Source: a virus. Taken from it: DNA of 41,688 nt. The notes below the pieces were generated by a model. That model was not told the DNA's origin. It saw nothing but the letters and a program-made list of their open reading frames with translations, and did not search any database. The stretch is taken from UHGV virus genome UHGV-0112358, one strand, 5' to 3'. Of the stretch, positions 4,117-21,866 are shown one piece after another (positions within the stretch are counted from its first letter, which is position 1; each line of letters starts with the position of its first letter). The position numbers and the translations under genes were made by a program.

Positions 4117-4215
4117 AATTCACCTCAGAATGGACACGGCCCAAGGAAATAACGCTGATTTAATACTTCGACTCGGGACAAATTAAGGCATACCCGCATT
4201 CCTTCGCGGTCACCA

Positions 4216-4374
4216 TTATGGCGATACCAGAGAGCTTTCTGCGTGTACATGCGTCTCTGTAACTTGCTCTCCTTCACCGTGGTTGCAAGTGACATGAATA
4301 TCTCCTTCGTTACCGATTAAATCTTTCATCTGACGAATGAATTCTTCGTCTGACCAGTTATCTGTAAAACTCAT
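4216..4374 (-). CDS. small hypothetical protein (52 aa)
   Basis: ATG overlaps Kil-like stop (ATGA); ORF below track cutoff. Confidence 0.3.
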   Translation of the reverse strand: MSFTDNWSDEEFIRQMKDLIGNEGDIHVTCNHGEGEQVTETHVHAESSLVSP

Positions 4375-4523
4375 TTCCTGCGATACCACGGAAGGTTGAT
4401 AGCTGATTTCATCGCTTTATTTGCTTCAAGCCACATTTTTGAATCACCAATAAAGCTGGCTATTACTGCTTTGTTTTGTGCTGCACGAAGCATCTGGTGA
4501 TTGATGGCTATTTCATTGCGCAT
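4371..4523 (-). CDS. kil: Kil-like host-killing peptide (50 aa)
   Basis: MRNEIAINHQMLRAAQNKAVIASFIGDSKMW... resembles recalled lambda Kil (IATFIGDEKM); directly downstream of cIII as in lambda. Confidence 0.45.
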   Translation of the reverse strand: MRNEIAINHQMLRAAQNKAVIASFIGDSKMWLEANKAMKSAINLPWYRRK

Positions 4524-4639
4524 AATAAGACCTCAACTCTTTTCCATCCGTCACGTAATTTACGGGTGATTCGTTCAAGTAAAGATTCATTTAGTTGGAA
4601 GGCACCCATGCGAGCGCCTCCCGCGATTGCGTAAATCAT
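4508..4639 (-). CDS. cIII: cIII-like protease inhibitor (43 aa)
   Basis: MIYAIAGGARMGAFQLNESLLERITRKLRDGWKR matches recalled lambda CIII core; below track cutoff. Confidence 0.75.
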   Translation of the reverse strand: MIYAIAGGARMGAFQLNESLLERITRKLRDGWKRVEVLLCAMK

Positions 4640-4662
4640 GGGTGGTTCCTTATGTTGGTTTA

Positions 4663-5631
4663 TTAGTAGGTTATTTTTGTTGCGAATACTTCGCCTTTTA
4701 CGATGGCTGTTATGATATTTTTAGCAACATCTTCTGATGCGCCAACCTTGATAATGTCAGCAAGTATTTTGTTATTTACTTCTTTCCGGTGAGCTTTATC
4801 CTTTGCTCTACGCTCTTCTTCGTCCTTGATTCTTTTTTCTTCTGCTATTCTGGCTTGCTCTTTTGCTTCAGCCTCGCGCCGGATTCGTTCAGCCTCCTCC
4901 TGTGCTTTTCGGCGTTCTGCTTCAATTGCCGCCTGCTTTTCTCTTTCAGCTCGTTCTGCTGCCTCTTTTGCTTCGCGCTGTGCTCGTTGCTCGGCTTCAA
5001 TGCGTTCACGCTCTGCACGTTCCGCTGCGGCCTTAGCTTCTGCTTCTCGCCTTGCTGCTGCTTCAATTTCGGCTTTTGCCTTTGCTTCGGCTTCTGCTCT
5101 GGCTTTCTCTTCAGCTTCTCTTTTTAAGCGTTCTTCATGCTCTCGCTTTTCCTGCTCCGCTTTGAGTCTTGCCTCTTCTCTTTGGCGGTCAAATTCGCGA
5201 TCCATCAAAATCGCTATTTCATGGTCAGACTCAATTTGCTTTGCGAGAGCTTCAGCTGCTGCCTTAGCTTCTTCTTCGGCTTTAATCCGTGCCTGTTCCT
5301 CCTCATAATCAGTAAGAGGCTGGCGCGCCTTGGCTTTCAGTTCATCAAGGCGATCGCGCACTGTCTTGCGGTTAGCATCAATTAGCTTTGGAATTTCCTT
5401 CAGTTCAGCAACAAGGTCTTTGCCAAGACCATCGAGATATGTTTTCGTCTGCGCAACTTTATACGCCAGAGAAGCGATCTCCTTTCTGCCCTTTGCCGTT
5501 GTGATATCAGGCACAAAGGACATAACTTCACGTTCAACCTTTTGGAGAATTTCTTCAATCTGGTCGGCAGACTGAAATACAGTCATCGCATTTGCTTTTT
5601 CAATAACAACTAAATCTGTTACTTCACTCAT
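4663..5631 (-). CDS. coiled-coil protein with E/A/K/R-rich repeat core, unknown function
   Basis: ATG at 5631 with SD GGAGG; ~170-aa low-complexity charged central region between globular ends; track ORF extends to 5727. Confidence 0.6.
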   Translation of the reverse strand: MSEVTDLVVIEKANAMTVFQSADQIEEILQKVEREVMSFVPDITTAKGRKEIASLAYKVAQTKTYLDGLGKDLVAELKEIPKLIDANRKTVRDRLDELKAKARQPLTDYEEEQARIKAEEEAKAAAEALAKQIESDHEIAILMDREFDRQREEARLKAEQEKREHEERLKREAEEKARAEAEAKAKAEIEAAARREAEAKAAAERAERERIEAEQRAQREAKEAAERAEREKQAAIEAERRKAQEEAERIRREAEAKEQARIAEEKRIKDEEERRAKDKAHRKEVNNKILADIIKVGASEDVAKNIITAIVKGEVFATKITY

Positions 5632-5643
5632 ATATCCTCCATC

Positions 5644-5670
5644 AAAAAAAATCGCCCTCACACTGGAGGG
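5644..5670 (-). terminator. rho-independent terminator inside pL operon (tL-like)
   Basis: Minus strand CCCTC-cagtgt-GAGGG then T8, immediately before the RBS of the coiled-coil gene. Confidence 0.5.
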
Positions 5671-5922
5671 AAAAGAAGATTTCCAATAATCAGAACAAGT
5701 CGGCTCCTGTTTAGTTACGAGCGACATTGCTCACATAGCAGACTCGTAAATCTGCTATAGGCGCTTATTCGCATCGCATGACAACATCAAATTTTTCGAG
5801 ATTACTTTGTCGCAACAATCCTTTTTCTACGCGGTCAGCTTTTCTATAATTATCAAATTAGAAATGTTTAATTACTTCTTTCGTTTCTCGCTCTATAACT
5901 TCAACAATGTATTTCTTATTCA

Positions 5923-6201
5923 TCATTCTTCCCCCAGAGCCTTGCTGATGGCTGCCTTGGCTCGTTTGTATTCGGTTAACTCTCTGCACCCTTCGTCATG
6001 CTCGTAAATGAAGACAAGCTCTTGCAGTGCTTCAAGCAAATCAGGAGCTGCTGCTATCAGTAGCGCATCCTCCCTTTCATTTCTTGTTGCTGCTTCAATG
6101 TATGTGTCACCAATCGTCACACCATGGAACGTAGTCATCATCTCGTTGACGTTTCTAACCGTGTACTTCCATTTACCAGGCGTACCCTTAAACTCTTTCA
6201 T
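5923..6201 (-). CDS. hypothetical protein (92 aa)
   Basis: ATG at 6201 preceded by GAGGTGG; track ORF starts at GTG 6207. Confidence 0.45.
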   Translation of the reverse strand: MKEFKGTPGKWKYTVRNVNEMMTTFHGVTIGDTYIEAATRNEREDALLIAAAPDLLEALQELVFIYEHDEGCRELTEYKRAKAAISKALGEE

Positions 6202-6221
6202 ATCCACCTCTGTTGTTTATG

Positions 6222-6245
6222 CCAAAAATAAAGGCCGACTATGCG
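6222..6245 (-). terminator. rho-independent terminator (tL1-like)
   Basis: Minus strand AGGCCG-catagt-CGGCCT followed by TTTATTTTT. Confidence 0.45.
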
Positions 6246-6253
6246 GCCTGAAA

Positions 6254-6565
6254 TTACTTAACCAATGATGCCGCATATTCAATTAGGAATAACTTAGGTG
6301 CAAGCCAAATCTTCAACCATTCGAAATTGAAGGCAATAATTAAAACACCCATAATTGAGCCAAATATAGGAACAAATACAGTGCATATATCGTAATAAAC
6401 CGAAGATATAAAATGTTCATCATTTGGACGTCCATCGAAAGACGTCCATCTCTCGCCATTATTTCTTGCCGTTCTTGCAAAACTAGGAAGTTTAATTGCT
6501 GCAATTAAAAGCAACAATCCAGCCACTTGGAAAAGTGCGCTATGGACAAAACTCCATATTAGCAA
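6254..6565 (-). CDS. putative small membrane protein, no ATG/GTG start (TTG at 6565)
   Basis: Open frame 6254..6679 directly after N; hydrophobic segments; only in-frame start is TTG without clear SD. Confidence 0.3.
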   Translation of the reverse strand: MLIWSFVHSALFQVAGLLLLIAAIKLPSFARTARNNGERWTSFDGRPNDEHFISSVYYDICTVFVPIFGSIMGVLIIAFNFEWLKIWLAPKLFLIEYAASLVK

Positions 6566-6684
6566 CTGATGAACAACATCAGGAATCTGTGCCTGGCTAA
6601 ATGAAACAGCCGCGTCTATTCCATTGCTGGCTTTTTGCAGTAGTTCTACGAGAATCTTGTTTGCTTGTTCTTCTACATCTCACC

Positions 6685-7020
6685 TCAAATAAGTGGTTTG
6701 CTGCCTAATTTCATTTTTTGGCGACCAACACAAGTCACCCCCATTTCACTGCGTGGCTTGCGGTAGTAAATACGGTTCTGTTTACGCTCGACTTCTTCTG
6801 CCTTCTTGCAGCGAAGGCTTCCGAGTGATGCTGCTTTTTCAGAAAGGCTTAAACGCTTTCTTGGGGCTTCCTGAACAGGTTCCTCACTGTCTGTGCCGAA
6901 GATCGAATCGATGATGTTGCATATAGCATCACGCTCGATAGCCAGCTTTCTGCGCCGCTCATGACGGCGAGTTTTGGCATTTCCTGCAAATGTTGATTTC
7001 CCGTACACGATTACCGTCAT
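6685..7020 (-). CDS. N: N-like transcription antiterminator
   Basis: Arg-rich motif GNAKTRRHERRRKLAIERD (P22 gp24-like) and C-terminus ...GVTCVGRQKMKLGSKPLI (lambda N-like); ATG 7020 with SD GAGGA. Confidence 0.8.
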   Translation of the reverse strand: MTVIVYGKSTFAGNAKTRRHERRRKLAIERDAICNIIDSIFGTDSEEPVQEAPRKRLSLSEKAASLGSLRCKKAEEVERKQNRIYYRKPRSEMGVTCVGRQKMKLGSKPLI

Positions 7021-7139
7021 GATGTTTTCCTCATGTGAAATGGCTTTGGTGGTGATGCGCCAGATGCTGATCTTCTGGTTGCTGTCGTTGCAGCTGCAAT
7101 TCACATCACCGCCAAACCCATCTCGTTTGGTATCTGTTT

Positions 7140-7173
7140 GCGCTTTGTCAGCGCCCCATCGAAGTTAAAGAGC
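7140..7173 (-). promoter_or_regulatory. nutL (boxA GCTCTTTAA, boxB GCGCTGACAAAGCGC)
   Basis: Minus-strand boxA-like then P22-type boxB hairpin between pL and N. Confidence 0.55.
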
Positions 7174-7212
7174 CTGCCAATCTGTTCCGTTTGGCGTCCT
7201 GCTGATGGCTAA

Positions 7213-7243
7213 ATAGTACGATGTGTACTTTATTGAGTCAATA
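7213..7243 (-). promoter_or_regulatory. pL promoter with OL operator dyad
   Basis: Minus strand -35 TTGACT (7241..7236), 17-nt spacer, -10 TACTAT (7218..7213); dyad AGTACGATGTGTACT (7215-7229) in spacer. Confidence 0.4.
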
Positions 7244-7304
7244 CAAAATGTTCTAAATGCGGTTAGTTTTTTATAACACTTTGTATTTTATTGATTTATA
7301 TTTT

Positions 7305-7334
7305 GGAAAAAGAAAACCCGACGCTAAGGTCGGG
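7305..7334 (-). terminator. rho-independent terminator downstream of cI
   Basis: Minus strand CCCGAC-cttagc-GTCGGG followed by TTTTCTTTTT. Confidence 0.5.
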
Positions 7335-7366
7335 TTATTGTTGTGTGTTTTAGAGTGGTGAGGCTG

Positions 7367-8026
7367 TTAACTAAATGTCTCTTCAGGCCACTGGCTGGCG
7401 ATAACTTTCCCTACTACGGAACAGCTATCATTGCATGGGATCATTGGATATTGCGGGTTTAGTGGTTGTAGGAACACCTGACCGCTATCCCTGATCAGTT
7501 TCTTGAAGGTAAACTCGTCACCACCAAGTCTGGCTATGCAGAAATCACCTGGCTCAACAGCCTGCTCAGGGTCAACGAGAATTAACATCCCGTCAGGAAA
7601 GCTTGGCTTGGATCCTGTTGGTGCGGTCATGGAATTACCTTCAACTTCAAGCCAAAACGCACAATCACTGGCTTTTTTGGTTGTGCTGACCCATCTCTCC
7701 GCATCGCCTTTGGTAAAGGTTCTAAGCTCAGGCGAGAACATCCCGGCCTGAACATGAGAAAAAACAGGGTACTCATATTGTTTTTTAACGGGGGCAGATG
7801 AGTATTCGCCAACAGGTGAAAATGTACCGTCGTGGTTGAATGAGACGTTATCAATACCAAGGTATTTAAACACCACACCAATCTCGTCAAGAGATGGATG
7901 ACGAGATCCGCGCAACCAGTGACCAATTCCACCCTGCGTCATACCAAGCTCTTCAGCTAACTTCTCTTGAGTTATGCCGAGCTCTTTCATTCTGGATCTA
8001 GCCAGTTCATACCATTTCATTTTCAT
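7367..8026 (-). CDS. cI: CI-type prophage repressor (HTH N-terminus, lambda-like S24 C-terminal domain)
   Basis: C-terminal half near-identical to recalled lambda CI ([15 protein letters not shown]...GNSM...ASQWPEETF); N-terminal HTH differs; start MKMKW at 8026, track ORF extends to 8101. Confidence 0.9.
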
Positions 8027-8137
8027 ACCCTTATTATTACGCTCTGTACTAAAACCATCCATGCACAAGATGTATTTTTTGTTTGCATTCCAAAAGTACA
8101 TATCGTATTATTGTTTCATGGTTACTATGGAGGGCAT
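8027..8137. promoter_or_regulatory. OR region: pR promoter and candidate operators
   Basis: pR -35 TTGCAT (8083-8088), 17-nt spacer, -10 TATTAT (8106-8111); operator-like dyads ATTACGCTCTGTACT (8036-8050) and AGTACATATCGTATT (8095-8109). Confidence 0.45.
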
Positions 8138-8353
8138 ATGAGCAACCTACGAAAATATCGAGAGTCACTGAATATCTCTCAAACAACACTTGCTAAGGCG
8201 GTTGGATGCACACAGGGAGCTATCGGACATTGGGAATCTGGTCGTCGCTTCCCAGACCTTAAAACATGCCGTGCTCTTGTTGCGTGCCTAAACAAGTTAG
8301 GCGCAAAAGTCAGTCTTGATGACGTGTTCCCACCGGAACACAAAGCCGCTTAA
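8138..8353 (+). CDS. cro: Cro-like HTH repressor
   Basis: 71-aa HTH protein (ISQTTLAKAVGCTQGAIGHWESG) divergent from cI; SD GGAGGG; track ORF starts upstream at 7967. Confidence 0.75.
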   Translation: MSNLRKYRESLNISQTTLAKAVGCTQGAIGHWESGRRFPDLKTCRALVACLNKLGAKVSLDDVFPPEHKAA

Positions 8354-8363
8354 TAAGCGGATC

Positions 8364-8398
8364 CGCTCTTTATCAATCTGCACCGCCGACAACGCGGT
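8364..8398 (+). promoter_or_regulatory. nutR (boxA CGCTCTTTA, boxB ACCGCCGACAACGCGGT)
   Basis: boxA consensus 10 nt after cro stop, then hairpin with GACAA-type loop. Confidence 0.55.
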
Positions 8399-8462
8399 AA
8401 CTAATTAATCACTCATCGAAAGATGAGTATTAGTGATTATTTACCTATGGAAATAGTAAGAA

Positions 8463-8759
8463 ATGGAACAAACAAGTTACAGCAAACTATCACAGCGCGA
8501 CGTTGATCGCGCTGAAACAGATTTACTCATCAACCTGTCAACGCTTACACAGCGCGGTCTGGCAAAGATGATTGGCTGTCATGAATCGAAGATAAGCAGA
8601 ACGGACTGGAGATTTATTGCTTCGGTCTTGTGTGCTTTCGGAATGGCATCAGACATCAGTCCGATTAGCAGGGCTTTTAAGTATGCGCTTGATGGAATCA
8701 CAAAGAAAAAATCCCCGGTGGCCGCCGGGGACTCTAAGCAAATTGATATGCAATTCTGA
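8463..8759 (+). CDS. cII: CII-like transcriptional activator
   Basis: HTH core and C-terminus ...KKKSPVAAGDSKQIDMQF resembling recalled lambda CII (...RSEQIQMEF). Confidence 0.7.
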   Translation: MEQTSYSKLSQRDVDRAETDLLINLSTLTQRGLAKMIGCHESKISRTDWRFIASVLCAFGMASDISPISRAFKYALDGITKKKSPVAAGDSKQIDMQF

Positions 8760-8791
8760 GGGAATTACTGGATCAATCCACAGGAGTCATT

Positions 8792-9637
8792 ATGACAAAT
8801 ACAGCAAAAATACTCAACTTCGGCAGAGGTAACTTTGCCGAACAGGAGCTAAGAGTGGCTGATATCGATGATGGTTACACCAGATTCGCTAACGAGCTGC
8901 TGGAAGCTATCGCAAGTGCCGATTTAACCGCTCGCCAGTTGAAAGTTATGCTGGCCTACGTCCGGAAAACATATGGATTCAATAAGAAAACAGATCGAAT
9001 AGCCGATGAGCAAATTGCTCAGTTAACAGGACTGTCAAGGCAGAATGTTAACAAGGCTAAAAAAGAACTGATTTCAATGAATTGCCTGTTTATGGATGGA
9101 AATAAAATCGGTGTAAACAGGGAGGTATCTGCGTGGCAATTCAGCAAGTGTCTCCAAGTTAGCAACTTTGTCTCGAAGTTAGAGACAAAAAATGTCTCCA
9201 AATTAGAGACACTCAATGTCTCGAAGTTAGAGACACACAAAAGACATTCTTTAAAGACAAAAGAAAATATTAATAAACCCCCTATATCCCCCAAAAAAAT
9301 TTCTCAGAAGTTCGACCCGCTAGAAACAGAGTTGCCTGATTGGTTATCGGCAGAAACATGGTTGTCGTGGGTTACCTATCGCAAGGAGATAGGTAAGTCG
9401 ATCAAGTCTAAGCAAAGCGTCACTCAGGCTATCAACGTTCTAAGCAGAAGTCTGGAGAAGGGATATACACCTGAAGAAATTATAAACCAGAGCATCGCCA
9501 GTGGTTGGCAGGGGATTTTTGAACCCAAGACTCCAAAGGGGAAATCTCAACCGAGGCCGCAGCAGCGAGCTATGCAGGAAAACTTTGCCGCCAAAGATTA
9601 CGGGCAAACTGAAATGCCTTCATGGGCGCAGGAGTGA
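8792..9637 (+). CDS. O: replication initiator O (lambda-O-like N-terminal domain)
   Basis: MTNTAKILNFGRGNFA... matches recalled lambda O N-terminus; iterons inside the gene; C-terminal domain differs. Confidence 0.85.
   Translation: MTNTAKILNFGRGNFAEQELRVADIDDGYTRFANELLEAIASADLTARQLKVMLAYVRKTYGFNKKTDRIADEQIAQLTGLSRQNVNKAKKELISMNCLFMDGNKIGVNREVSAWQFSKCLQVSNFVSKLETKNVSKLETLNVSKLETHKRHSLKTKENINKPPISPKKISQKFDPLETELPDWLSAETWLSWVTYRKEIGKSIKSKQSVTQAINVLSRSLEKGYTPEEIINQSIASGWQGIFEPKTPKGKSQPRPQQRAMQENFAAKDYGQTEMPSWAQE
9149..9235 (+). repeat. origin iterons (ori) inside O
   Basis: TGTCTCGAAGTTAGAGACA at 9169, 9193, 9217 (24-bp period) plus degenerate copy at 9149; each palindromic TGTCTC/GAGACA; followed by A/T-rich stretch 9236-9300. 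Confidence 0.8.
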
Positions 9638-9639
9638 AC

Positions 9640-10485
9640 ATGACGCTGGATGAAAAGATCTCCCAACTGGAGAAAAAACTTGCAGAATTGAGTTCTCCGC
9701 CAATTGCTATCGAGCATACAGCTGTAGAAATTGGCACTGGCATCTGTGAAAAACATGGTGAGTTTGAGCAGCGTAACCGTTACTCGACTGGGCCAATTAA
9801 GTTTGCCTCAAGACCTAGCGAATGCCCGGAATGCATGAGAGATGAGCTTATTCGGCTACAGGCAGAGAAGATTAAAATCGACGAAGAATCACGTAAGCGC
9901 AATGTCGAGTTTCTGTTGAATAATCTTGATATTCCTGAACGATTCAAGGGTTGCACACTACAGAACTACGAGCCAGTCAACGACGATGCAAAGAGAGTGC
10001 TCAGGGTGTGTCAGGCATACGCCAGCAAATGGCCTGAGAGGTTACAGAAAGGCGGTGGGCTGGTTATGTGCGGAAAGCCTGGTACTGGAAAGAATCATCT
10101 TGCACTGGCTATCGCCCGGCACGCAATTACGGAACATCAAAGCTCAGCTATTTTCACAACGGCGCTGAAAATTGCCAGAGAATATAAATCAACATGGTCT
10201 AAAAACTCCACCCGCACAGAGGATGAAGTGATCCGACAGTTCACTAAACCTGACCTGCTAATTATCGATGAGGTTGGTGTGCAGTTTGGAAGCGAGGCGG
10301 AAAAGATGATCATGTTCGAAATCATCAACACCCGCTACGAGTGCATGAAGCCAACAATCCTGATTAGCAACCAGAGCAAAGATGAACTGTCTGCATTCAT
10401 TGGTGAGCGTGTTATTGACAGGATGAATGATGGCGGCGGGTGCACTCTTGCGTTTACATGGGATAGTTACAGGAGCAGATCGTGA
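9640..10485 (+). CDS. DnaC/IstB-type helicase loader ATPase
   Basis: Walker A MCGKPGTGKNHLA, Walker B LLIIDEVG; ATG 9640 with SD AGGAGTG; track ORF starts 9622. Confidence 0.85.
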   Translation: MTLDEKISQLEKKLAELSSPPIAIEHTAVEIGTGICEKHGEFEQRNRYSTGPIKFASRPSECPECMRDELIRLQAEKIKIDEESRKRNVEFLLNNLDIPERFKGCTLQNYEPVNDDAKRVLRVCQAYASKWPERLQKGGGLVMCGKPGTGKNHLALAIARHAITEHQSSAIFTTALKIAREYKSTWSKNSTRTEDEVIRQFTKPDLLIIDEVGVQFGSEAEKMIMFEIINTRYECMKPTILISNQSKDELSAFIGERVIDRMNDGGGCTLAFTWDSYRSRS

Positions 10486-10772
10486 CTGGAAAAGAAATCA
10501 TCCTGGAATATCTGAAAACTCATGAACAATTCTCCCCACATGAATTAGCACTGATCACCGGAATACCAAATAACAGAATCGCTCAAGCAGCAAGGCATAT
10601 GGTGAAACAAGGGAATTTGAGTGTTGTTGAGCGTAAGTGGAAGACGGTTATTTATGCAAAACGCAAAGTGAAGAAGGAGCCAATTAAAAGAAATCCAGAT
10701 GGTACGGGGTGGGGATGTGCAAATCCAATGACGGCGTTTATTAATAGGGCGCTTATGGAGGTAAGGCAATGA
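10482..10772 (+). CDS. hypothetical protein (possible winged-helix)
   Basis: 96-aa ORF, GTG start overlapping upstream stop. Confidence 0.45.
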   Translation: MTGKEIILEYLKTHEQFSPHELALITGIPNNRIAQAARHMVKQGNLSVVERKWKTVIYAKRKVKKEPIKRNPDGTGWGCANPMTAFINRALMEVRQ

Positions 10773-10798
10773 CCATCTACATCACTGAGCTAATAACA

Positions 10799-10826
10799 GG
10801 CCTGCTGGTAATCGCAGGCCTTTTTA
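10799..10826 (+). terminator. rho-independent terminator (tR2-like) before nin region
   Basis: GGCCTGC-tggtaatc-GCAGGCC followed by TTTTT. Confidence 0.6.
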
Positions 10827-10845
10827 TTTGGGGGAGAGGGAAGTC

Positions 10846-11286
10846 ATGAAAAAACTAACCTTTGAAATTCGATCTCCAGCACATCAGCAAAACGCTATTC
10901 ACGCGGTACAGCAAATTCTTCCAGACCCAACCAAACCAATCGTAGTAACCATTCAGGAACGCAACCGCAGCTTAGACCAAAATCGGAAGCTTTGGGCTTG
11001 CCTTGGTGACGTCTCTCGTCAGGTTGAATGGCATGGTCGCTGGCTGGATGCAGAAAGCTGGAAGTGTGTGTTTACCGCAGCATTAAAGCAGCAGGACGTT
11101 GTTCCTAACCTTGCCGGGAATGGCTTTGTGGTAATAGGCCAGTCAACCAGCAGGATGCGTGTAAGCGAATTTGCGGAGCTATTAGAGCTTATACAGGCAT
11201 TCGGTACAGAGCGTGGCGTTAAGTGGTCAGACGAAGCGCGACTGGCTCTCGAATGGAAAGCGCGATGGGGAGATCGGGCTGCATGA
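10846..11286 (+). CDS. ninB: NinB (Orf) recombination mediator
   Basis: MKKLTFEIRSPAHQQNAIHAVQQIL... near-identical to recalled lambda NinB; SD GGAGAGGG. Confidence 0.85.
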   Translation: MKKLTFEIRSPAHQQNAIHAVQQILPDPTKPIVVTIQERNRSLDQNRKLWACLGDVSRQVEWHGRWLDAESWKCVFTAALKQQDVVPNLAGNGFVVIGQSTSRMRVSEFAELLELIQAFGTERGVKWSDEARLALEWKARWGDRAA

Positions 11287-11810
11287 CTATCAAATCAAAT
11301 ACGCCAGCACACGACAAGGACTGCTGGCAAACGCCGCTTTGGCTTTTTGATGCACTGGATATTGAGTTTGGATTCTGGCTGGATTCGGCAGCGAGCGACA
11401 AAAATGCTCTGTGTGCTCACTGGCTAACTGAGGCCGACGACGCGCTCAATTCTGAGTGGGTAAGCCACGGTGCAATCTGGAATAACCCACCGTACAGCAA
11501 TATCAGGCCGTGGGTGGAAAAAGCTGCTGAGCAGTGCATACAACAGCGACAGACGGTAGTTATGCTTGTGCCAGAGGATATGTCAGTCGGATGGTTCAGC
11601 AAGGCTCTGGAGAGTGTCGACGAAGTTCGCATTATCACTGATGGACGGATTAATTTTATCGAACCATCGACAGGGCTGGAGAAGAAGGGAAACAGCAAAG
11701 GCTCCATGCTGCTGATTTGGCGACCGTTCATCAGTCCTCGACGGATGTTTACTACCGTATCCAAAGCGGCATTGATGGCGATCGGGCAGGGTGTCAGGAG
11801 GGCGGCATGA
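11283..11810 (+). CDS. phage-type DNA N6-adenine methyltransferase
   Basis: [14 protein letters not shown]...IWNNPPYS motif; start overlaps ninB stop (ATGA). Confidence 0.75.
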
Positions 11811-11983
11811 GGCGACAGCGACGAAGTATCACCGACATCATCTGCGAAAACTGCAAATACCTTCCAACGAAACGCTCCAGAAATAAACGCAAGCCAATCC
11901 CAAAAGAATCTGACGTAAAAACCTTCAACTACACGGCTCACCTGTGGGATATCCGGTGGCTAAGACATCGTGCGAGGAAATGA
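11807..11983 (+). CDS. ninE: NinE
   Basis: [23 protein letters not shown]...[14 protein letters not shown] matches recalled lambda NinE. Confidence 0.7.
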
Positions 11984-12384
11984 CAATGGATTATTCACAG
12001 TTAAGTGATTTTGAAATTAACGTGGCGGTATTCGAATCCATTCATAACGGATCACCGGATTACAAAGAAGGTGAGAATGGCGATATGGTGTTTGTCTCAT
12101 TTGAGGGAGACATTGTAAACGGAGACGCAGTTGAAGTAGAAGTTGAGCGCGGATCCTTTAACCCATGCGTAAACCCAGCAGACGCATGGCCGATTATCAC
12201 TGAAAACAAAATTAGCACCATGTGGATGACAGCGGAAAAAGAATGGTGCGCATGGTCAGGAGGTGATTTAGAGGAAGGTTGTTGGGAATGGGAAAATATT
12301 CCTGACTACTGCTTCTGCGGTGAATCGCCTCTCCGCGCAGCCATGATTGTATTTCTCATGATGCAGGACGCCAATAATGCTTAG
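11980..12384 (+). CDS. hypothetical nin-region protein
   Basis: ATG overlaps ninE stop; acidic/Trp-rich 134-aa product; track ORF starts at GTG 11944. Confidence 0.5.
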
Positions 12385-12553
12385 CCCATCCCAATCCCTT
12401 CAATACCAGAAAGAAAGCGTCGAGCGAGCTTTAACGTGCGCTAACTGCGGTCAGAAGCTGCATGTGCTGGAAGTTCACATGTGTGAGCACTGCTGCGCAG
12501 AACTGATGAGCGATCCGAATAGCTCAATGTACGAGGAAGAAGACGATGAATGA
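12377..12553 (+). CDS. ninF: NinF (Cys-rich, 58 aa)
   Basis: [43 protein letters not shown] matches recalled lambda NinF; below track cutoff. Confidence 0.6.
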   Translation: MLSPSQSLQYQKESVERALTCANCGQKLHVLEVHMCEHCCAELMSDPNSSMYEEEDDE

Positions 12554-13268
12554 GTTAATAAATGGCAATGCCATCAAAATGACAAGCATTGAAATCGCTG
12601 AGTTGGTGGGTAAGCGTCATGACAATGTGAAACGTACCATCGAAACGCTGGCTAAAAATGGTGTTATCCGGCTTCCTCAAATTGAGGTTTCCGAAAGAAT
12701 CAATAACTTAGGGTTCAATGTTCAGTACGAGCATTACGTCTTCGAGGGCGAACAAGGTAAGCGAGACAGTATTGTCGTTGTAGCCCAGTTGTCGCCGGAA
12801 TTCACGGCTCGCCTTGTTGACCGTTGGCGAGAGCTTGAAGAAGCTGCGGTTAATATCCCAAAAACGCTACCAGAAGCGTTGCGCCTTGCTGCTGACCTTG
12901 CTGAGCAGAAAATGCAACTGGAAAACCAGCTCGCAATTGCCGCACCTAAAGTTGAGTTTGCCGATCGCGTTGGCGAGGCCAGCGGAATTTTGATTGGAAA
13001 CTTTGCAAAGGTTGTTGGAATTGGTCCAAACAAACTGTTTGCGTGGATGCGCGATCACAAAATCCTTATTGCTTCAGGTTCCCGGCGCAATGTGCCAATG
13101 CAGGAATATATGGATCGCGGCTATTTCACAGTGAAAGAAACAGCGTTCAACACAAATCACGGAATACAGATATCGTTCACCACAAAAATCACCGGGCGTG
13201 GTCAACAGTGGCTGACCAGAAGGCTGCTCTATAGCGGAATGCTGAAAGTAACAGGGGAGGCTGCTTAA
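12546..13268 (+). CDS. Rha-family regulatory / antirepressor-like protein
   Basis: N-terminal motif SIEIAELVGKRHDNVKRTIETL; C-terminal antirepressor-like domain; SD GAGGAAG. Confidence 0.65.
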   Translation: MNELINGNAIKMTSIEIAELVGKRHDNVKRTIETLAKNGVIRLPQIEVSERINNLGFNVQYEHYVFEGEQGKRDSIVVVAQLSPEFTARLVDRWRELEEAAVNIPKTLPEALRLAADLAEQKMQLENQLAIAAPKVEFADRVGEASGILIGNFAKVVGIGPNKLFAWMRDHKILIASGSRRNVPMQEYMDRGYFTVKETAFNTNHGIQISFTTKITGRGQQWLTRRLLYSGMLKVTGEAA

Positions 13269-13558
13269 TGGCTAAACTACGCAAAGAAGCGCGCGGCAGA
13301 GAATGCCAGGTACGTATTTACGGCGTATGCAATGGCAACCCTGAAACTACAGTTCTGGCACATTACCGGATGGCTGGAATTTGCGGAACGGGAATGAAGC
13401 CTGACGACCTGATCGGAGCATGGGCTTGTAGCGCGTGTCACGATGAAATCGACCGACGCACCCATAAACTCGACAACAAAGACGCCAGACTTTACCACCT
13501 GGAAGGCGTGATCAGGACGCAGGCGATACTGCTGAAGGAGGGGAAGATTAAGCCATGA
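13268..13558 (+). CDS. YbcO-like small Cys-rich protein (DUF1364-like)
   Basis: 96 aa with Cys/His pattern (ECQVRIYGVC...CSACHDE); sits before rusA as in lambdoid nin regions. Confidence 0.5.
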   Translation: MAKLRKEARGRECQVRIYGVCNGNPETTVLAHYRMAGICGTGMKPDDLIGAWACSACHDEIDRRTHKLDNKDARLYHLEGVIRTQAILLKEGKIKP

Positions 13559-13917
13559 ACGAATATCAGTTTGTGCTTCCATACCCGCCGTCGGTGAACA
13601 CCTACTGGCGAAGACGGGGAAGCCAATACTACATCAGCGATAAAGGCCAGAAATACCGAAAAGACGTTCAGCAAATCATCCGCCAACTTAAGTTAGACAT
13701 TTTCACCAAATCACGACTCCGCATCAAAGTCATCGCAGACGTTCCAGACTCCCGCCGCCGCGACCTCGACAACATCCTGAAAGGTTTACTCGACTCCCTT
13801 ATCCACGCCGGATTTGCGGAAGACGACGAGCAATTCGATGACATTCGCGTAATTCGTGGTGTGAAAGTACCAGGCGGACGGCTTGGAATAAAAATCACCG
13901 AACTGGAGAACGCATGA
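13555..13917 (+). CDS. rusA: RusA Holliday-junction resolvase
   Basis: 120 aa, MNEYQFVLPYPPSVNTYWRRRG...DLDNILKGLLDSL typical RusA. Confidence 0.85.
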   Translation: MNEYQFVLPYPPSVNTYWRRRGSQYYISDKGQKYRKDVQQIIRQLKLDIFTKSRLRIKVIADVPDSRRRDLDNILKGLLDSLIHAGFAEDDEQFDDIRVIRGVKVPGGRLGIKITELENA

Positions 13918-14102
13918 ACGCCACAATTCAAACGATACCAGAGCTTCTTATCCAGACACGAGGCAATCAGACCGAAGTGGCGAGGATGCTTTCCTGTGCA
14001 AGAGGAACAGTGCTCAAGTACAACCGAGACAGCAAAGGCGAGCGTCACGTAATAGTTAACGGCGTCCTGATGGTCAAACAAGGCAAGAGGGGAAGACGAT
14101 GA
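13914..14102 (+). CDS. ninH: NinH
   Basis: ...YGNQTEVARMLSCARGTVLKYNRD... resembles recalled lambda NinH. Confidence 0.65.
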   Translation: MNATIQTIPELLIQTRGNQTEVARMLSCARGTVLKYNRDSKGERHVIVNGVLMVKQGKRGRR

Positions 14103-14722
14103 GACTCGAAAGCGTAGCTAAATTTCATTCGCCAAAAAGCCCGATGATGAGCGACTCACCACGGGCTACGGCTTCTGACTCTCTTTCCGGTACTGATGTG
14201 ATGGCTGCTATGGGGATGGCGCAATCACAAGCCGGATTCGGAATGGCTGCATTCTGTGGTAAGCACGAACTCAGCCAGAACGACAAACAAAAGGCTATCA
14301 ACTATCTGATGCAATTTGCACACAAGGTATCGGGGAAATACCGTGGCGTGGCAAAGCTTGAAGGAAATACTAAGGCAAAGGTACTGCAAGTGCTCGCAAC
14401 ATTCGCTTATGCGGATTATTGCCGTAGTGCCGCGACGCCGGGCGCAAGATGCAGAGATTGCCACGGTACAGGCCGTGCGGTTGATATAGCCAAAACGGAG
14501 CAGTGGGGGAGAGTTGTTGAGAAAGAGTGCGGAAGATGCAAAGGTGTCGGCTATTCAAGAATGCCAGCAAGCGCCGCATATCGCGCTGTAACGATGCTAA
14601 TCCCAAACCTTACTCAACCCACCTGGTCACGCACTGTTAAGCCGCTGTATGACGCTCTGGTGGTGCAATGCCACAAAGAAGAGTCAATTGCAGACAACAT
14701 TTTGAATGCGGTCACACGTTAG
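14099..14722 (+). CDS. Q: late-gene antiterminator Q
   Basis: 207 aa, MRLESVAKFHSPKSPMMSDSP... with zinc-finger CRDCHGTG...CGRCKG; near-identical to recalled lambda Q. Confidence 0.9.
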   Translation: MRLESVAKFHSPKSPMMSDSPRATASDSLSGTDVMAAMGMAQSQAGFGMAAFCGKHELSQNDKQKAINYLMQFAHKVSGKYRGVAKLEGNTKAKVLQVLATFAYADYCRSAATPGARCRDCHGTGRAVDIAKTEQWGRVVEKECGRCKGVGYSRMPASAAYRAVTMLIPNLTQPTWSRTVKPLYDALVVQCHKEESIADNILNAVTR

Positions 14723-14764
14723 CGGCATGATTGCCACGGATGGCAACATATTAACGACATGATA

Positions 14765-14793
14765 TTGACTTTTTGAATAAAGTTGGGTAAATT
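14765..14793 (+). promoter_or_regulatory. late promoter pR' with qut region
   Basis: -35 TTGACT (14765-14770), 17-nt spacer, -10 TAAATT (14788-14793), lambda-like. Confidence 0.6.
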
Positions 14794-14829
14794 TGACTCA
14801 ACGATGGATAAATGCACTCGTTAAATAAA

Positions 14830-14858
14830 GCCCTGAGTTAATAGCTCGGGGCTTTTTG
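14830..14858 (+). terminator. tR'-like terminator of short pR' leader RNA
   Basis: GCCCTGAG-ttaatag-CTCGGGGC followed by TTTTT about 35 nt after predicted start. Confidence 0.6.
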
Positions 14859-15832
14859 CGTTTGCACAACAGGTAAGAGCATTCTCCCTTATGGGGCTTG
14901 GCTTAAATGCACCGAGTGCTCTTATCGTTGTGGCAGCACAACGATAGTTTTCGTCAGAGTTGGCGACTTTGCGGGTTTTTAGAAACTGACCACAAAGATA
15001 AATGCAAACGATGATTTGATGTTGATGGCGGCCTAAGAAACCAAAGTCACGGGGTCTTCCGATTCCCCGCTACCAAATTCGGCGCAGTGGCCCGCTGTGA
15101 TTAATAATGGGCACCCAATAATGAGAGCGTTGGACAGTGGCGATGAGATTTCGCAACCCAGGAGCCAATAGATCGGGGATAGTGCGCATAATACCGATTG
15201 AGGTGAGTGCTGGAATAAGCATCGGGAGTCATGACCCAACATGATGCGGGAAAGCCAGCCACCGAGAGACCCGGCAGGGTAAACCGGCCTTCCGCTTGGT
15301 TATCAAGCAATAATAGCGCTCTCATTCGTGGGTAACAACGGGCATGTCGCCTTAGTAAATCCCTCAAGGGTGCGACGCATAGACCGGTACTAGCGTCGCC
15401 GTTAGCTCCACGAAACGGAGCGCACAACAGGTAAGAGTATTTGTAGAGTTCGACTCTCTACCGTGGGATTTTTTCCGCGATGCGAGCCATAAATGCTCTT
15501 TCCGTTGTGCTGAATTAAGCGAATGCCGGAAGCAGAACCGGATCACCAAATGCGTACAGGCGTCATCGCCGCCCAGCAACAGCACAACCCAAACTTAGCC
15601 GTAGCCACTGGCTATCCTGAACTCATCAGTGATAGTTATGCTGCGGCCTTCTACGCATGACCTTCGTGAAAGCGGGTGGCAAGAGGCTGCGCTAACAACC
15701 TCCTGCCGTTTTGCCCGTGCATATCGGTCACGAACAAATCTGATTACTAAACACAGTAGCCTGGATTTGTTCTATCAGTAATCGACCTTATTCCTAATTA
15801 AATAGAGCAAATCCCCTTATTGGGGGTAAGAC

Positions 15833-16156
15833 ATGAAGATGCCAGAAAAACATGACCTGTTAGCCGCCATTCTCGCGGCAAAGGAACAAGGCATCGGGGC
15901 AATCCTTGCGTTTGCAATGGCGTACCTTCGCGGCAGATATAATGGCGGTGCGTTTACAAAAACAGTAATCGACGCAACGATGTGCGCCATTATCGCCTGG
16001 TTCATTCGTGACCTTCTCGACTTAGCCGGACTAAGTAGCAATCTCGCTTATATAACGAGCGTGTTCATCGGCTACATCGGTACTGACTCGATTGGTTCGC
16101 TTATCAAACGCTTCGCTGCTAAAAAAGCCGGAGTAGAAGATGGTGGAAATCAATAA
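15833..16156 (+). CDS. S: holin S (dual-start MKM)
   Basis: [34 protein letters not shown]... near-identical to recalled lambda S. Confidence 0.9.
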
Positions 16157-16616
16157 TCAACGTAAGGCGTTCCTCGATATGCTGGCGTGGTCAGAGGGAA
16201 CTGATAACGGACGACAGAAAACCAGAAATCATGGTTATGACGTCATTGTAGGTGGAGAGCTATTCACTGATTACTCCGATCACCCTCGTAAACTTGTCAC
16301 GCTAAACCCAAAACTCAAATCAACAGCAGCCGGTCGCTATCAGCTTCTTTCCCGTTGGTGGGATTCCTATCGTAAGCAGCTTGGCCTGAAAGACTTCTCT
16401 CCGAAAAGCCAAGACGCTGTGGCATTGCAGCAGATTAAAGAGCGTGGCGCTTTACCGATGATTGATCGCGGTGATATCCGTCAGGCTATCGATCGTTGCA
16501 GCAATATCTGGGCTTCACTGCCGGGCGCTGGTTATGGTCAGTTCGAGCATAAGGCTGACAACCTGATTGCAAAATTCAAAGAAGCTGGCGGAACGGTCAG
16601 AGAGATTGAGGTATGA
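16140..16616 (+). CDS. R: endolysin R (lytic transglycosylase)
   Basis: [35 protein letters not shown]... near-identical to recalled lambda R. Confidence 0.9.
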
Positions 16617-17050
16617 GCAGAGTCACCGCGATTATTTCCGCTCTGGTTATCTGCATCATCGTCTGTCTGTCATGGGCTGTTAATCATTACCGTGATAACG
16701 CCATCGCCTACAAAGACCAGCGCGATAAAGCCACGTACATCATCGCTGACATGCAGAAGCGTCAACGTGATGTGGCTGAACTCGATGCCAGATATACAAA
16801 GGAACTTGCTGATGCTAACGCGACTATCGAAAGTCTCCGTGCTGATGTTTCTGCTGGGCGTAAGCGCCTGCAAGTCGCCGCCACCTGTGCAAAGTCAACG
16901 ACCGGAGCCAGCAGCATGGGCGATGGAGAAAGCCCAAGACTTACAGCAGATGCTGAACTCAATTATTACCGTCTCCGAAGTGGGATCGACAGGATAACCG
17001 CGCAGGTTAACTACCTGCAGGAGTACATCAGGACGCAATGCCTTCGATGA
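16613..17050 (+). CDS. Rz: i-spanin Rz
   Basis: [31 protein letters not shown]...; follows R with overlapping start. Confidence 0.85.
16812..16997 (+). CDS. Rz1: o-spanin Rz1 (embedded lipoprotein)
   Basis: Alternate frame inside Rz; [20 protein letters not shown] lipobox then Pro-rich tail; SD AAGGA. Confidence 0.7.
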
Positions 17051-17224
17051 TAGCGATAATTTTACTCATCATCCTTCACATCTGGCTCTGTAGACAGGGT
17101 GGTGATCACTTCTGGAGTGAATCCAGATTAAACATCTCATTGCTGATGCTTGATATTGAGCATCTGGCGCGCGGTAAGGGGCTGCGTTGAGATAAGAGCC
17201 AGTTCATTACAAATACCAGGATTT

Positions 17225-17250
17225 AGCCTCGCATTCGCGGGGCTTTTTAT
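17225..17250 (+). terminator. rho-independent terminator after lysis cassette
   Basis: GCCTCGC-attc-GCGGGGC followed by TTTTTAT. Confidence 0.5.
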
Positions 17251-17392
17251 ATCTGAATTTCACAGCGCATCTCACGCGCATATTAACGAGAGCCTTTCAG
17301 TAAGCGAGCCTGAGAAATGCCGTTATAGGTGGCGACCTCTCTCGGGCGGCTTTTCTGTGAGACAGGCTCACTTTCTAAAAGGTAAAGACGCT

Positions 17393-17911
17393 ATGAATCA
17401 TCAATTGGCTAATCTCGATTTCCGGGACATGGTGGTTGTTTCTGGTGATCGCGTGATCACAACCTCCCGCAAGGTAGCAGCTTACTTCGACAAGCAGCAT
17501 CACCACATCATTCAGAAAATCGAAAAGCTAGACTGTTCGGATGAATTTCTAACCAGCAACTTTTCGCGGGTTACCTATGAACACAAGGGTAATCAGTATG
17601 TTGAATATGAAATTTCCAAAGACGGCGCTATGTACATCATCATGTCGTTTACCGGCAAAAAAGCTGCCGCCATCAAAGAGGCGTTTATCAAAGCATTTAA
17701 TTGGATGCGTGACAGGCTGATGGAGATGGCTCACTCATACCAAAGAGAGCACAACGAGTTAATGCTGGAGTTCATGAAGGAAAAGGATGTTGCCAGTATG
17801 TCAGGACGCTTGCTGAACCGCTGGGGCAGGATCAAAAAACCGCAACTCATAGCAAGAATCAAAATGCTTGAGCAGCAGGCGCAAATATCGATCCCCGGAC
17901 TGCCAAAGTGA
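17393..17911 (+). CDS. Rha-family phage regulatory protein
   Basis: MNHQLANLDFRDMVVVSGDRVITTSRKVAAYFDKQHHHIIQKIEKL...FTGKKAAAIKEAFIKAFNWM; track ORF starts upstream at 17150. Confidence 0.65.
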   Translation: MNHQLANLDFRDMVVVSGDRVITTSRKVAAYFDKQHHHIIQKIEKLDCSDEFLTSNFSRVTYEHKGNQYVEYEISKDGAMYIIMSFTGKKAAAIKEAFIKAFNWMRDRLMEMAHSYQREHNELMLEFMKEKDVASMSGRLLNRWGRIKKPQLIARIKMLEQQAQISIPGLPK

Positions 17912-18266: not shown

Positions 18267-18857
18267 ATGGCAAAGCTCACCGACAAACAAGAGCTGTTTG
18301 CCCGTGAGTACCTGAAAGATCTGAATGGAACACAGGCAGCTATCAGGGCGGGCTACAGCGAGAAGACCGCCAATGAGCAGGCATCTCGATTATTAGCAAA
18401 TGTTAATGTTCAAAAATTCGTTGCTGAACTTAAAACCGCCCGCGTTGAACAGACGGGCATAGATGCAGCCTATGTTCTTCGTAGATTGGTTGAAATCGAC
18501 CAGATGGATGTGCTTGACATTCTCCTGCAAGACGGTGAGCTAAAACCCATTAAAGACTGGCCTAAGGTATGGCGCACAACGCTATCAGGAATGGATGTCG
18601 TGGAGATGGTATCCGCAGATAGCGCCGCACTTCTGAAGAAAATCAAATGGCCTGATAAGGTCAAAAACCTCGAACTTCTTGGTAAGCATGTTTCTGTTCA
18701 GGCATTTAAAGAGCAAACATCTACAGAAATAACTGGCGCTGATGGTGGCCCTGTTCGTTATGCCGATATGTCAGAAGAGTTACTTGAAGAGAAACTGAAG
18801 GAGCTTGGTAATGGCAGGCGCTCCAATCAGCTTGAATCGAAACGCTCAGATTTATGA
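18267..18857 (+). CDS. terminase small subunit
   Basis: MAKLTDKQELFAREYLKDLNGTQAAIRAGYSEKTA... typical small-terminase N-terminus; immediately upstream of TerL. Confidence 0.75.
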   Translation: MAKLTDKQELFAREYLKDLNGTQAAIRAGYSEKTANEQASRLLANVNVQKFVAELKTARVEQTGIDAAYVLRRLVEIDQMDVLDILLQDGELKPIKDWPKVWRTTLSGMDVVEMVSADSAALLKKIKWPDKVKNLELLGKHVSVQAFKEQTSTEITGADGGPVRYADMSEELLEEKLKELGNGRRSNQLESKRSDL

Positions 18858-20331
18858 GTTGCACAAAGAGCTGGCTATCCGCTCAGCAAGAAAAAACCTT
18901 CTCGATTTCACTTTGTACACTAATCCGCAATACGAAACAGGTTGGTTTAACGAGCTGCTTTGTGCTGAGCTAGATCACTTTCTGGATGAAGTTAAAGCCG
19001 GAAACATGCCCAGGCTAATGGTGTTTGCCCCTCCGCGCTCAGGAAAGAGTGAGTTGTGCTCTCGCCGCTTCCCGGCGTATGTGTTAGGACAGCATCCATC
19101 ATGGAACATTATCTCGTGCTCATATTCTTCTGACCTGTCAGACCGAATGAGCCGTGACGTTAAACGCATTATCACCTCTGACAAGTACGCTGATGTTTTC
19201 CCTGACGTGAAAATACCTTCAGGACGTAGTTTGGCGGGAGGCATCAACAAAACCGAGCTATGGGAACCAGTTGATGCCAAAGGCGAACTACACGGCGGCT
19301 CATATCGTTCTGCTGGCGTTAACGGTGGTATCACAGGTCAGGGTATGAATATTGGGGTTATTGATGACCCCGCGAAAGATTACAAAACCGCATCGTCTCC
19401 AACTTACCAGGAAGCGGTGATGGACTGGTACGACACGACATTCTTCACGCGTGTTGACCCGAAGATAAACGGCATCGTCATCATTCTGACACGCTGGCAT
19501 CAAAACGATCTCGCCGGACAGTTATTAAAACTAGCTGAAGAGGGTGGGGAACGATGGCGCGTAGTTAGCTTCCCAATGGAAGCTGAAAAGGAGGAGATCC
19601 ATGAACTCAACGGTAACGTATATCGACTGCGCAATCCCGGTGAAATTCTGTTCCCTGAGCGCATGCCGAGAGAGTTCGTAGAGAAATGCAAACAGCGCGG
19701 TTCCCTTGTATGGAATGCTCTTTATCAGCAAAGACCAACCGCCAAAGGCGGGGGGCTTATTAAGTCTGAATGGTTTGGTGAATATCTGGTACTCCCTCCC
19801 ATGCAATGGCGTGCCGTCTATGGAGACACCGCACAGAAAACAAAAGAGGTCAACGACTTCTCAGTATTCGAGCACTGGGGGCTTGGTACTGACGGGTACA
19901 TCTATCTGATAGATATGATTCGCGGTAAATGGGAGGCCGATGAATTACAACGCCGTGCTGTTGCATTCTGGGAAAAGTGCAAAACTCTGAAGAATGGGCC
20001 GCTTCGCCACATGGCGATAGAGGACAAGTCATCTGGCACAGGCCTGATACAGAACATCCGTAAAAAAGCGATATGCCCCATCAAAGCAATTCAGCGCGAT
20101 AAGGATAAGTACACGCGACTGATGGATGTACAGGGTTATATCGAGTCCGGTTACATCAAGTTGCCCAGCAGCGCACCATTCATCAACGACTTCCTCGTTG
20201 AGATGGAAGCTATTAATCCTGATTTCAATACGCACGACGACCAGCTTGATCCGATGATGGATGCCATCGATGAGATGAAAAATGGCAATGGTCCGTTACG
20301 TATATCTGAAGACCTTTTGAGGCTCGCATAG
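18811..20331 (+). CDS. terminase large subunit
   Basis: Walker [12 protein letters not shown], nuclease-domain acidic residues; ATG 18811 with SD AAGGAG. Confidence 0.85.
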
Positions 20332-21866
20332 TGTTTAATTTTTTGAGAAAGAAAAAATCTGAGCCTCAGAAAGAAGAGGCGAAACAGCCAATGTCTCTGG
20401 CGAATGTTCTTGCGATTATTAACGAGCAGGAGCGAATTAAAAATGAAGGCGAGGCATTGCGTAGAATTGAGCGATACGTACCCCCGCCAGGCGTTATTCC
20501 TGAACATATTGGGGAGTCAGCTCTGGCGATGGACTCCACGCCGTACAGTTACCTTAACTCAGCAAACATCACCGCATATGGCTACGGTGGATTTCCCGGC
20601 TACCCATATCTGTCTCAACTTGCTCAGTTGCCGGAGTATCGCAAGATTACTGGCACGATAGCAGAAGAGATGACGCGAAAATGGATTGAGCTGAAGCATG
20701 TAGGTAAAGACGATGGTGACGACAAGGCCGATAAGATTCGCCAGCTTGACGACGCATTAAAGCGTTTCAGAGTGCGAGAGAAGTTTCGCGAGGCGGCGGA
20801 ACATGACGGTTACTTCGGGCGCGGACAGATTTATATCGACGTGAAGACGCCAAGCGGTAACTCAGCCTGGCTGGTTCCCGACGAACTGGATAAGAAGCTC
20901 TATATCAGCCCACGCAAGATTACCAAAGGAAGCCTGAATGGTTTCCGCGTTATCGAGGCCATGTGGACATACCCTGGTGTGTATAACGCTGATAACCCTC
21001 TCAGTCCTGATTTCTTCAATCCATCTGAATGGTATGTCATGGGGCGTACTGTTCACGCCAGCCGTATGTTGACAATGATTTCTCGCCAGGTGCCAGACAT
21101 TCTCAAAGCGGCGTACAACTTCGGCGGCTTGTCGCTGAGTCAGATGGCAGAGCCATACGTGCAGAACTGGTTGAGAACACGTGACAGCGTTAGCGATCTG
21201 GTTCATTCGTTTGTGGTCCATGGGCTGAAGACGAACATGCAGAATGCCTTGTCTGGAATTGCAGACCCAAACCTGTTTATGCGTGCCGAGCTATTCAATA
21301 AGGTTCGCGACAATCGCGGAATGTTCCTTATTGATAAGGATGGAGAAGAATTCTTCCAGTTTGTGACAAGTCTGTCCGGAGTTGATGCTCTTCAGGCGCA
21401 AGCGCAGGAACAAATGGCATCGGTATCAAGCATTCCTCTGGTTAAGCTCCTTGGCATCACTCCTAACGGGCTAAACGCTTCATCTGATGGCGAAATCCGC
21501 GTCTTCTATGACTCAATACACGCCATGCAGGAGAATCTGTTCAGGGTGCCGCTGAAAACGGTGCTGGATGTTATCCAGTTGAATGAATTTGGCGATATTG
21601 ACCCTGACATTGATTTTGAATTCCTGCCGCTGTACGAGCTTACAGAAGCAGAGAAAGCCGAGATCATGAAACATCAGTCTGAGGCTGATAAGAACTATGC
21701 CGAAGCTGGCGTGTTCGATCTTGATGCAATAAGAAGCATGCGCCAGTCGGATAAGGCCAGCCCATACCACATGATGGAATCTGAATATGACGAAGAAGAG
21801 TACGAAAACGAGTCCATCGAAGAAGGATTCGAAGACCCGGAAAACACTTCGTCCAGTCAGAGCTAA
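20331..21866 (+). CDS. portal protein (Mu gp29-like)
   Basis: 511 aa following TerL and preceding MuF-like gene; acidic C-terminus. Confidence 0.65.

Follow-up and report, generated by a model that had tools for sequence, protein, structure and literature searches.

The virus genome UHGV-0112358 contains, directly downstream of an antitermination gene N, an open frame that lacks a usual start codon at its beginning. This raises the question of whether the frame is a gene translated in an unusual way or a gene that has been lost. It was analysed within the whole stretch of 41,688 nucleotides (hereafter, the window). The earlier note on this DNA had offered two readings, namely a membrane protein using a non-canonical start and a decaying gene. 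The second agrees with the homologs, which carry ATG where the window has GTA, while only the membrane character of the first was borne out and its start was not. We suggest, with a probability of about 0.8, that the start codon of the frame has been knocked out and that the frame is an allele of an accessory gene conserved in the early-left (PL) operon of lambdoid and P22-like phages. At best, the allele would be a severe knock-down instead of a knockout.

The open frame and its surroundings

On the minus strand, 141 sense codons (6257–6679) lie between TGA 6680–6682 and TAA 6254–6256. An extent of 6254–6682 with 142 codons had been given before; the frame is indeed open throughout, but this span counts both stop codons and the codon number is off by one. 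The junction TGA-GG-TGA was read correctly from the sequence and consists of the N stop (TGA 6685–6687), GG (6683–6684) and the TGA at 6680–6682. The statement that there is no in-frame ATG or GTG proved wrong, since GTG 6524–6526 and ATG 6350–6352 are both in frame, 52 and 110 codons into it; the first 51 codons contain neither. TTG 6563–6565 is, as had been noticed, the first canonical start-like codon and has no Shine-Dalgarno (SD) sequence, but it is not the sole one, and further in-frame TTG codons are located at 6515–6517, 6512–6514, 6314–6316 and 6263–6265. The features of the locus are collected in Table 1.

Table 1. Features in and around the open frame, in coordinates of the window. 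Residues of the hydrophobic segments are numbered from the GTA codon.
Feature	Position	Strand	Basis and remarks
P22-type antitermination gene N	6685..7023	-	ATG 7021–7023, stop TGA 6685–6687; contains GNAKTRRHERRRKLAIER
Sigma-70 promoter-like site TTGACT-17-TACTAT, likely PL	7213..7241	-	Promoter scan; consensus match only
GCGCTGACAAAGCGC hairpin upstream of N, taken as nutL boxB	7140..7154	-	Sequence reading
Shine-Dalgarno GAGGTGA	6680..6686	-	Overlaps the N stop and the frame-opening TGA; conserved as GAGGTGA/AAGGTGA in the family
Out-of-frame ATG-TAG start-stop	6673..6678	-	4 nt past the GAGG core of the SD; in the N reading frame
GTA at the family start-codon position	6674..6676	-	Alignment, L004 sequence, census, position-by-position comparison
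Sf6 gene 34 / PHROG 3054 homolog coding frame	6254..6676	-	140 codons + TAA; undamaged except for the start codon
Hydrophobic segment 1, residues 38–62	6491..6565	-	Hydropathy; helical in the AF2 model, pLDDT 83–91; TTG 6563–6565 is its first codon
Hydrophobic segment 2, residues 97–119	6320..6388	-	Hydropathy; AF2 helix 93–116
Terminator-like hairpin AGGCCGCATAGTCGGCCT then TTATTTTT	6222..6249	-	Terminator scan; 5 nt past the stop of the frame

The gene upstream of the frame in the early-left operon is a genuine N gene, as it matches Pfam PF25694 (N_peptide, E 1.1e-25) and its homologs are annotated as 'antitermination protein N'. The hairpin upstream of N (Table 1) is presumably the P22 boxB, i.e., the nutL site of a P22-type N protein. 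A consensus scan of the minus strand from the repressor gene to the frame showed no promoter-like site other than the PL-like one, and thus none inside N that could drive expression of the frame in a lysogen. Since no such site lies between the PL-like site and the gene, the gene product would be made from the N-antiterminated early-left transcript and not from the repressed prophage.

A terminator had been placed after the frame, at 6222–6245. A terminator-like element is present there, but its hairpin occupies 6232–6249 and its T-run 6222–6231. The same hairpin was found in an IMG/VR contig (L006) and in the JGI contig Ga0169611_100487 (L007). Directly past it, an ORF of 92–94 aa (5923–6207, minus strand) has its own GAGGTGGATATG ribosome-binding site and matches no Pfam family. 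E. coli 3CM and 13KWH46 have a small gene at the equivalent position, with position and not sequence being compared. Further downstream lies an ORF of 354 aa (4663–5727, minus strand), or 323 aa when counted from an internal ATG, in which a long stretch rich in E/A/R/K resembles a coiled coil. It is homologous to Sf6 gene 33, and the annotation reads 'similar to phage phi80 Agt; Gam antitoxin' in phage HF4s and coiled-coil domain protein according to PGAP; no Pfam match was found for this ORF.

With regard to the window as a whole, the early half includes patches 93–98% identical to P22-like and lambdoid coliphages (N7, IME10, Sf6 and CUS-3). The late structural half (18000–41688) contains large same-strand ORFs (e.g., 18805–20331, 20331–21866 and 30144–31919). 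A comparison with 50,697 phage records showed hardly any similarity of this half at the nucleotide level, the top hit covering 6%. Judging from these comparisons, the window appears to be a mosaic phage whose structural module has been poorly sampled. No Rfam family reached its gathering score on either strand of the window (1–41688).

Relationship to Sf6 gene 34 and the predicted membrane protein

On sequence comparison, the frame is a real, conserved gene for a small membrane protein of the Shigella phage Sf6 gene 34 family. Residues 2–141 of the frame match PHROG 3054 (labelled function unknown) over profile positions 1–137 of 137 with E 8.7e-52. A protein search with Sf6 gp34 gave 495 relatives at E ≤ 0.001, so that the frame is far beyond chance. 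The relatives occur in Escherichia, Salmonella, Citrobacter, Klebsiella, Enterobacter and others, and among the matches listed all are unnamed or hypothetical. The family is widespread in enterobacterial lambdoid and P22-like prophages. The nucleotide identity of the window frame is 97.7% to the gene for the Sf6 gene 34 protein (AAQ12224) and 95.8% to the hypothetical gene ECRS218_0047 of phage CUS-3, and the 'TM helix-containing protein' of phage HF4s is a more distant relative. In annotated relatives, the gene is located in the early-left operon, directly past N or past ral, behind a GAGGTGA or AAGGTGA sequence; the window gene has this location and this SD.

Intact products of the family comprise about 120–150 aa and are proteins with two transmembrane segments. 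According to the family alignment (A2), a conserved N-terminal segment of 41 residues (MEEQANKILVELLQKA...) and a C-terminal helix of 21 residues flank the two transmembrane helices and a variable loop. The C-terminal segment reads WLKIWLAPKL.LIEYAASLVK, and the window has every invariant residue except M1. Across loci L009–L145, a biased sample because the loci were picked by an 18-nt match at the 5' end, the family falls into size classes of 121, 140 and 149 aa with a hypervariable core formed by the two helices and the loop. Between the classes, the first 120 nt are 92–96% identical and the middle is only about 60% identical. This pattern suggests a cassette-like exchange by recombination at the conserved family ends.

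The two hydrophobic segments noticed earlier were confirmed, with the Kyte-Doolittle mean over 19 residues reaching 2.2–2.5 and two hydrophobic helices being predicted. The AlphaFold2 model, obtained with 25 family members (mean pLDDT 75), includes a long helix (2–72), a loop and two further helices (93–116 and 120–139). The model had no match in BFVD or the PDB at E ≤ 0.001. In Pfam, only a sub-threshold hit to DUF1031 was obtained (14.9 bits against a cut-off of 25), and NCBIfam and PADLOC gave nothing significant. In the literature, we found no account of the function of Sf6 gene 34; the paper on Sf6 evolution reports deletions only in the nin region, and not at gene 34.

It had also been proposed that this is the position of superinfection-exclusion genes. 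Lambda sieB does adjoin N, but position is the sole basis of this proposal and there is no similarity to SieB. The frame had no hit to PF14163 at E ≤ 1 under conditions in which lambda SieB, the positive control, hits this family at 1e-29, and hhalign gave a probability of 0.2% for the family alignment A2 against lambda SieB; homology to SieB was rejected. As a guess made with low confidence, the intact protein may be a small protein of the inner membrane, acting early in infection to alter the host envelope or to keep other phages out. A hypervariable membrane core between conserved ends fits a role involving the envelope or competing phages.

The start-codon position and possible routes of translation

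An alignment with homologs, which the earlier note had proposed as a check, places an intact ATG exactly at the position of the GTA in the window. The relatives (Sf6, CUS-3 and HF4s) read GAGGTGA-nAT-ATG-GAAGAACAAGC and the window reads GAGGTGA-GAT-GTA-GAAGAACAAGC. The spacer of the relatives is (G/T)AT and the codons after their start are GAA-GAA-CAA, so that GAT-GTA-GAA-GAA-CAA in the window differs in the start codon. In intact relatives, translation would begin at the ATG three bases past GAGGTGA or AAGGTGA, an SD that is located on or just past the stop of the upstream N or ral gene. The SD of the window forms an anti-SD duplex of −6.9 kcal/mol, the sole strong one near any candidate start, and its ideal spacing of 6 nt to the GTA is retained. 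The two substitutions that convert ATG to GTA also yield an ATG-TAG start-stop: the first creates an out-of-frame ATG two bases upstream, and the second creates the TAG.

To cover the start position in other genomes, the conserved 18 nt past the start were scanned for with the start codon left free. The IMG/VR census gave 108 ATG, 1 GTA, 1 ACG and 1 unrelated locus, and the census of metagenome contigs gave 26 ATG and 3 chance matches in unrelated genes. Thus, of the approximately 136 loci in viral and metagenome contigs that truly belong to the family, 134 have ATG at this position. Family members start with ATG, rarely with GTG, three bases past the SD; the window has neither codon there. 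By its alignment and its position, the window frame is a family member by descent and a start-defective allele. The orthologs have an intact start, the window carries a substituted one, and none of the other possible starts is preceded by a ribosome-binding site, as is the case for a pseudogene that arose by start loss.

A probable intermediate allele is present in the chromosome of E. coli 3CM. It has an identical N junction (1 mismatch to the window in 66 nt at the 5' end) and a GTG, which PGAP annotated as the start of WP_167814875. A 47-mer around the start has matches in 199 of 5,426 complete E. coli genomes, none of them perfect, and the best is that of 3CM with its single mismatch. The A-to-G change by which ATG becomes GTG, and by which the out-of-frame ATG arises, is common to the 3CM allele and the window. 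In contrast to the window, it keeps a usable GTG start, and its central coding part is another allele with 15 nt differences. The simplest history is probably ATG to GTG, common to 3CM, and then to GTA; the knockout would have arisen by two point substitutions, probably through this GTG allele.

The GTA itself could be a sequencing or assembly error, the true phage having ATG or GTG, which we consider very improbable. Only two assemblies show it. It was absent from the 25 matching phage records, from GTDB species representatives (0 hits with two patterns), from the complete E. coli genomes and from JGI/ENA metagenome contigs (TGTRGAAG..., 0 hits). However, the change consists of two substitutions and not of an indel, and one of them occurs independently in an E. 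coli isolate genome (3CM). The second assembly, the sole IMG/VR contig with GTA (IMGVR_UViG_3300029828_000288, L006), is a separate one that has the identical sequence here and differs by one base elsewhere: it shows one mismatch to window 4181–17397 in 13,217 nt (99.992% identity). At this identity, L006 and the window are the same phage assembled at least twice, and the presence of GTA in both argues against a sequencing error. The two assemblies possibly come from the same or related samples, which bears on the persistence of the allele in nature.

If the GTA is real, low but functional expression may still be considered, either by initiation at GTA 6674–6676 or by re-initiation after the N stop or the ATG-TAG; the allele would then be attenuated, possibly for a toxic membrane protein. 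We regard this as unlikely. Initiation from all 64 codons has been measured in E. coli, and codons beyond AUG, GUG, UUG and four near-cognates gave approximately 0.01–1% of AUG initiation (bioRxiv 10.1101/063800), so many non-canonical codons initiate detectably. GUA, however, mismatches AUG at two of the three positions, is outside the near-cognates that reach 1–3% and is not a recognised near-cognate start. The SD and its spacing to the GTA are kept, but the out-of-frame ATG, two bases upstream and the better match, would compete for this SD. That the remainder of the frame is intact suits a working gene, but a loss of very recent date predicts it just as well, and over 420 nt it is uninformative at such divergence, with one private missense change only. 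Although the series ATG, GTG and GTA is readable as stepwise down-tuning, the weak start is not conserved among relatives, as GTA was found only in the window and the near-identical L006. A stronger version, in which this series and the start-stop behind an unchanged SD are a selected attenuation device that lets through a trickle of a toxic two-TM protein from the GTA or by re-initiation, seems quite improbable. For the start-codon knockout that we prefer, the out-of-frame ATG-TAG would capture ribosomes bound at the SD, and the full-length protein would most likely not be made, or would reach about 1% or less of normal.

Slightly less likely than low expression from the GTA is a shorter product initiated within the frame, at TTG 6563–6565 (103 aa), GTG 6524–6526 (90 aa) or ATG 6350–6352. 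These codons are in frame, and gene callers choose such starts in damaged relatives; an example is P0037, a protein of 90 aa from the GTG that was called in a nonsense allele. However, none of the three has an SD (anti-SD duplex of +0.3, +1.3 and −1.5 kcal/mol, respectively), nor was one found before the in-frame ATT, CTG and ATA codons. Both TTG and GTG are located inside transmembrane segment 1, and the products would be without the invariant 41 N-terminal residues. These residues, which the TTG-started product would lose, and the 21 at the C-terminus show the strongest conservation in the family. The exact 103-aa product was absent from the gene-call collection.

Finally, the tight TGA-GG-TGA and the 5-nt frame offset superficially resemble a recoding site, where a programmed frameshift or stop read-through from N would give an N-gp34 fusion. 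This is hardly conceivable, because the arrangement of the stop codons rules it out. The −1 frame relative to N is shut immediately ahead of the open frame by a stop of its own, TGA 6680–6682. The stop of the N frame is TGA 6685–6687; read-through of this stop would remain in the N frame and end at TAG 6673–6675, which leaves no open path from N into the frame. Moreover, the gene stands behind ral in many relatives, where it has this SD and an ATG, so it is an independent cistron.

Age of the loss and comparison with known systems

Of the intact alleles, L105 is closest to the window, with 4 nt differences. Two of these are in the start codon, and the others are a synonymous change at S17 and the missense change G87E, private to the window lineage. 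Another locus, L067, whose N junction is that of the window, has ATG and differs from the window at five positions. Because the rest of the frame is undamaged, the loss reads as recent; the closest alleles differ by only 4–8 nt, which gives no power for dN/dS or an analysis of relaxed selection.

Independent lesions were observed in other family loci. Codon 11 (E11) is changed from GAA to TAA in four contigs (L007, where 2851–2886 was read directly, L073, L101 and L122), the start is changed from ATG to ACG in L026, and a remnant of 17 codons is present in five contigs (L035, L074, L099, L124 and L138). Truncations to 20, 81, 100 and 112 residues also occur in the family, and the loci with those to 81, 100 and 112 are L079 and L117, L020 and L104, and L084. 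It should be noted that L007 has a mosaic junction inside N (2750–2850) as well: only the last ~90 nt of a P22-type N precede its gp34-like gene, and on its upstream side this N remnant is joined to an unrelated 110-aa gene and a terminator-like hairpin.

Damaged loci make up roughly one in seven in these collections and represent at least eight separate events. Such repeated damage fits a dispensable accessory gene; from the frequency of damaged alleles and the patchy presence among relatives, the gene is most likely dispensable, and its loss would be tolerated for this reason. The gp34 family is widespread, with conserved termini and a hypervariable core, and has been repeatedly inactivated, which is typical of accessory or conflict-related genes. 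The apparent gene without a start is best explained in an ordinary way, by a knockout of the start codon that befell a dispensable accessory gene of the phage very recently. We propose to annotate 6254–6676 as a pseudogene or start-lost allele, and not as a 103-aa protein from TTG or a 90-aa protein from GTG. The case matters little for biology at large. The natural ATG, GTG, GTA and ACG alleles would provide a ready-made series on whether the gene is costly or beneficial.

Among the known systems, the SieB proteins of lambda and P22 resemble the gp34-like protein in being small membrane-associated accessory proteins encoded beside N in the early-left region. In contrast, the annotation places lambda sieB on the other strand from N, and the window gene runs in the same direction as N and directly adjoins the N stop codon. 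Genes with a conserved non-AUG start, such as infC with AUU, have a good SD and no AUG, GUG or UUG at the expected position, as does the window. In infC-type genes, the unusual start is a near-cognate codon conserved among orthologs. Unlike them, the window has a codon with two mismatches that was seen in one lineage only, and about 134 of 136 relatives have ATG instead. The closest counterparts are the genes of Sf6, CUS-3 and HF4s, which share with the window the early-left position, the SD, the two hydrophobic segments and the conserved termini. They differ in having ATG where the window has GTA and in lacking its private G87E; in Sf6 and CUS-3, ral is located between N and the gene, whereas in the window the gene directly follows N.
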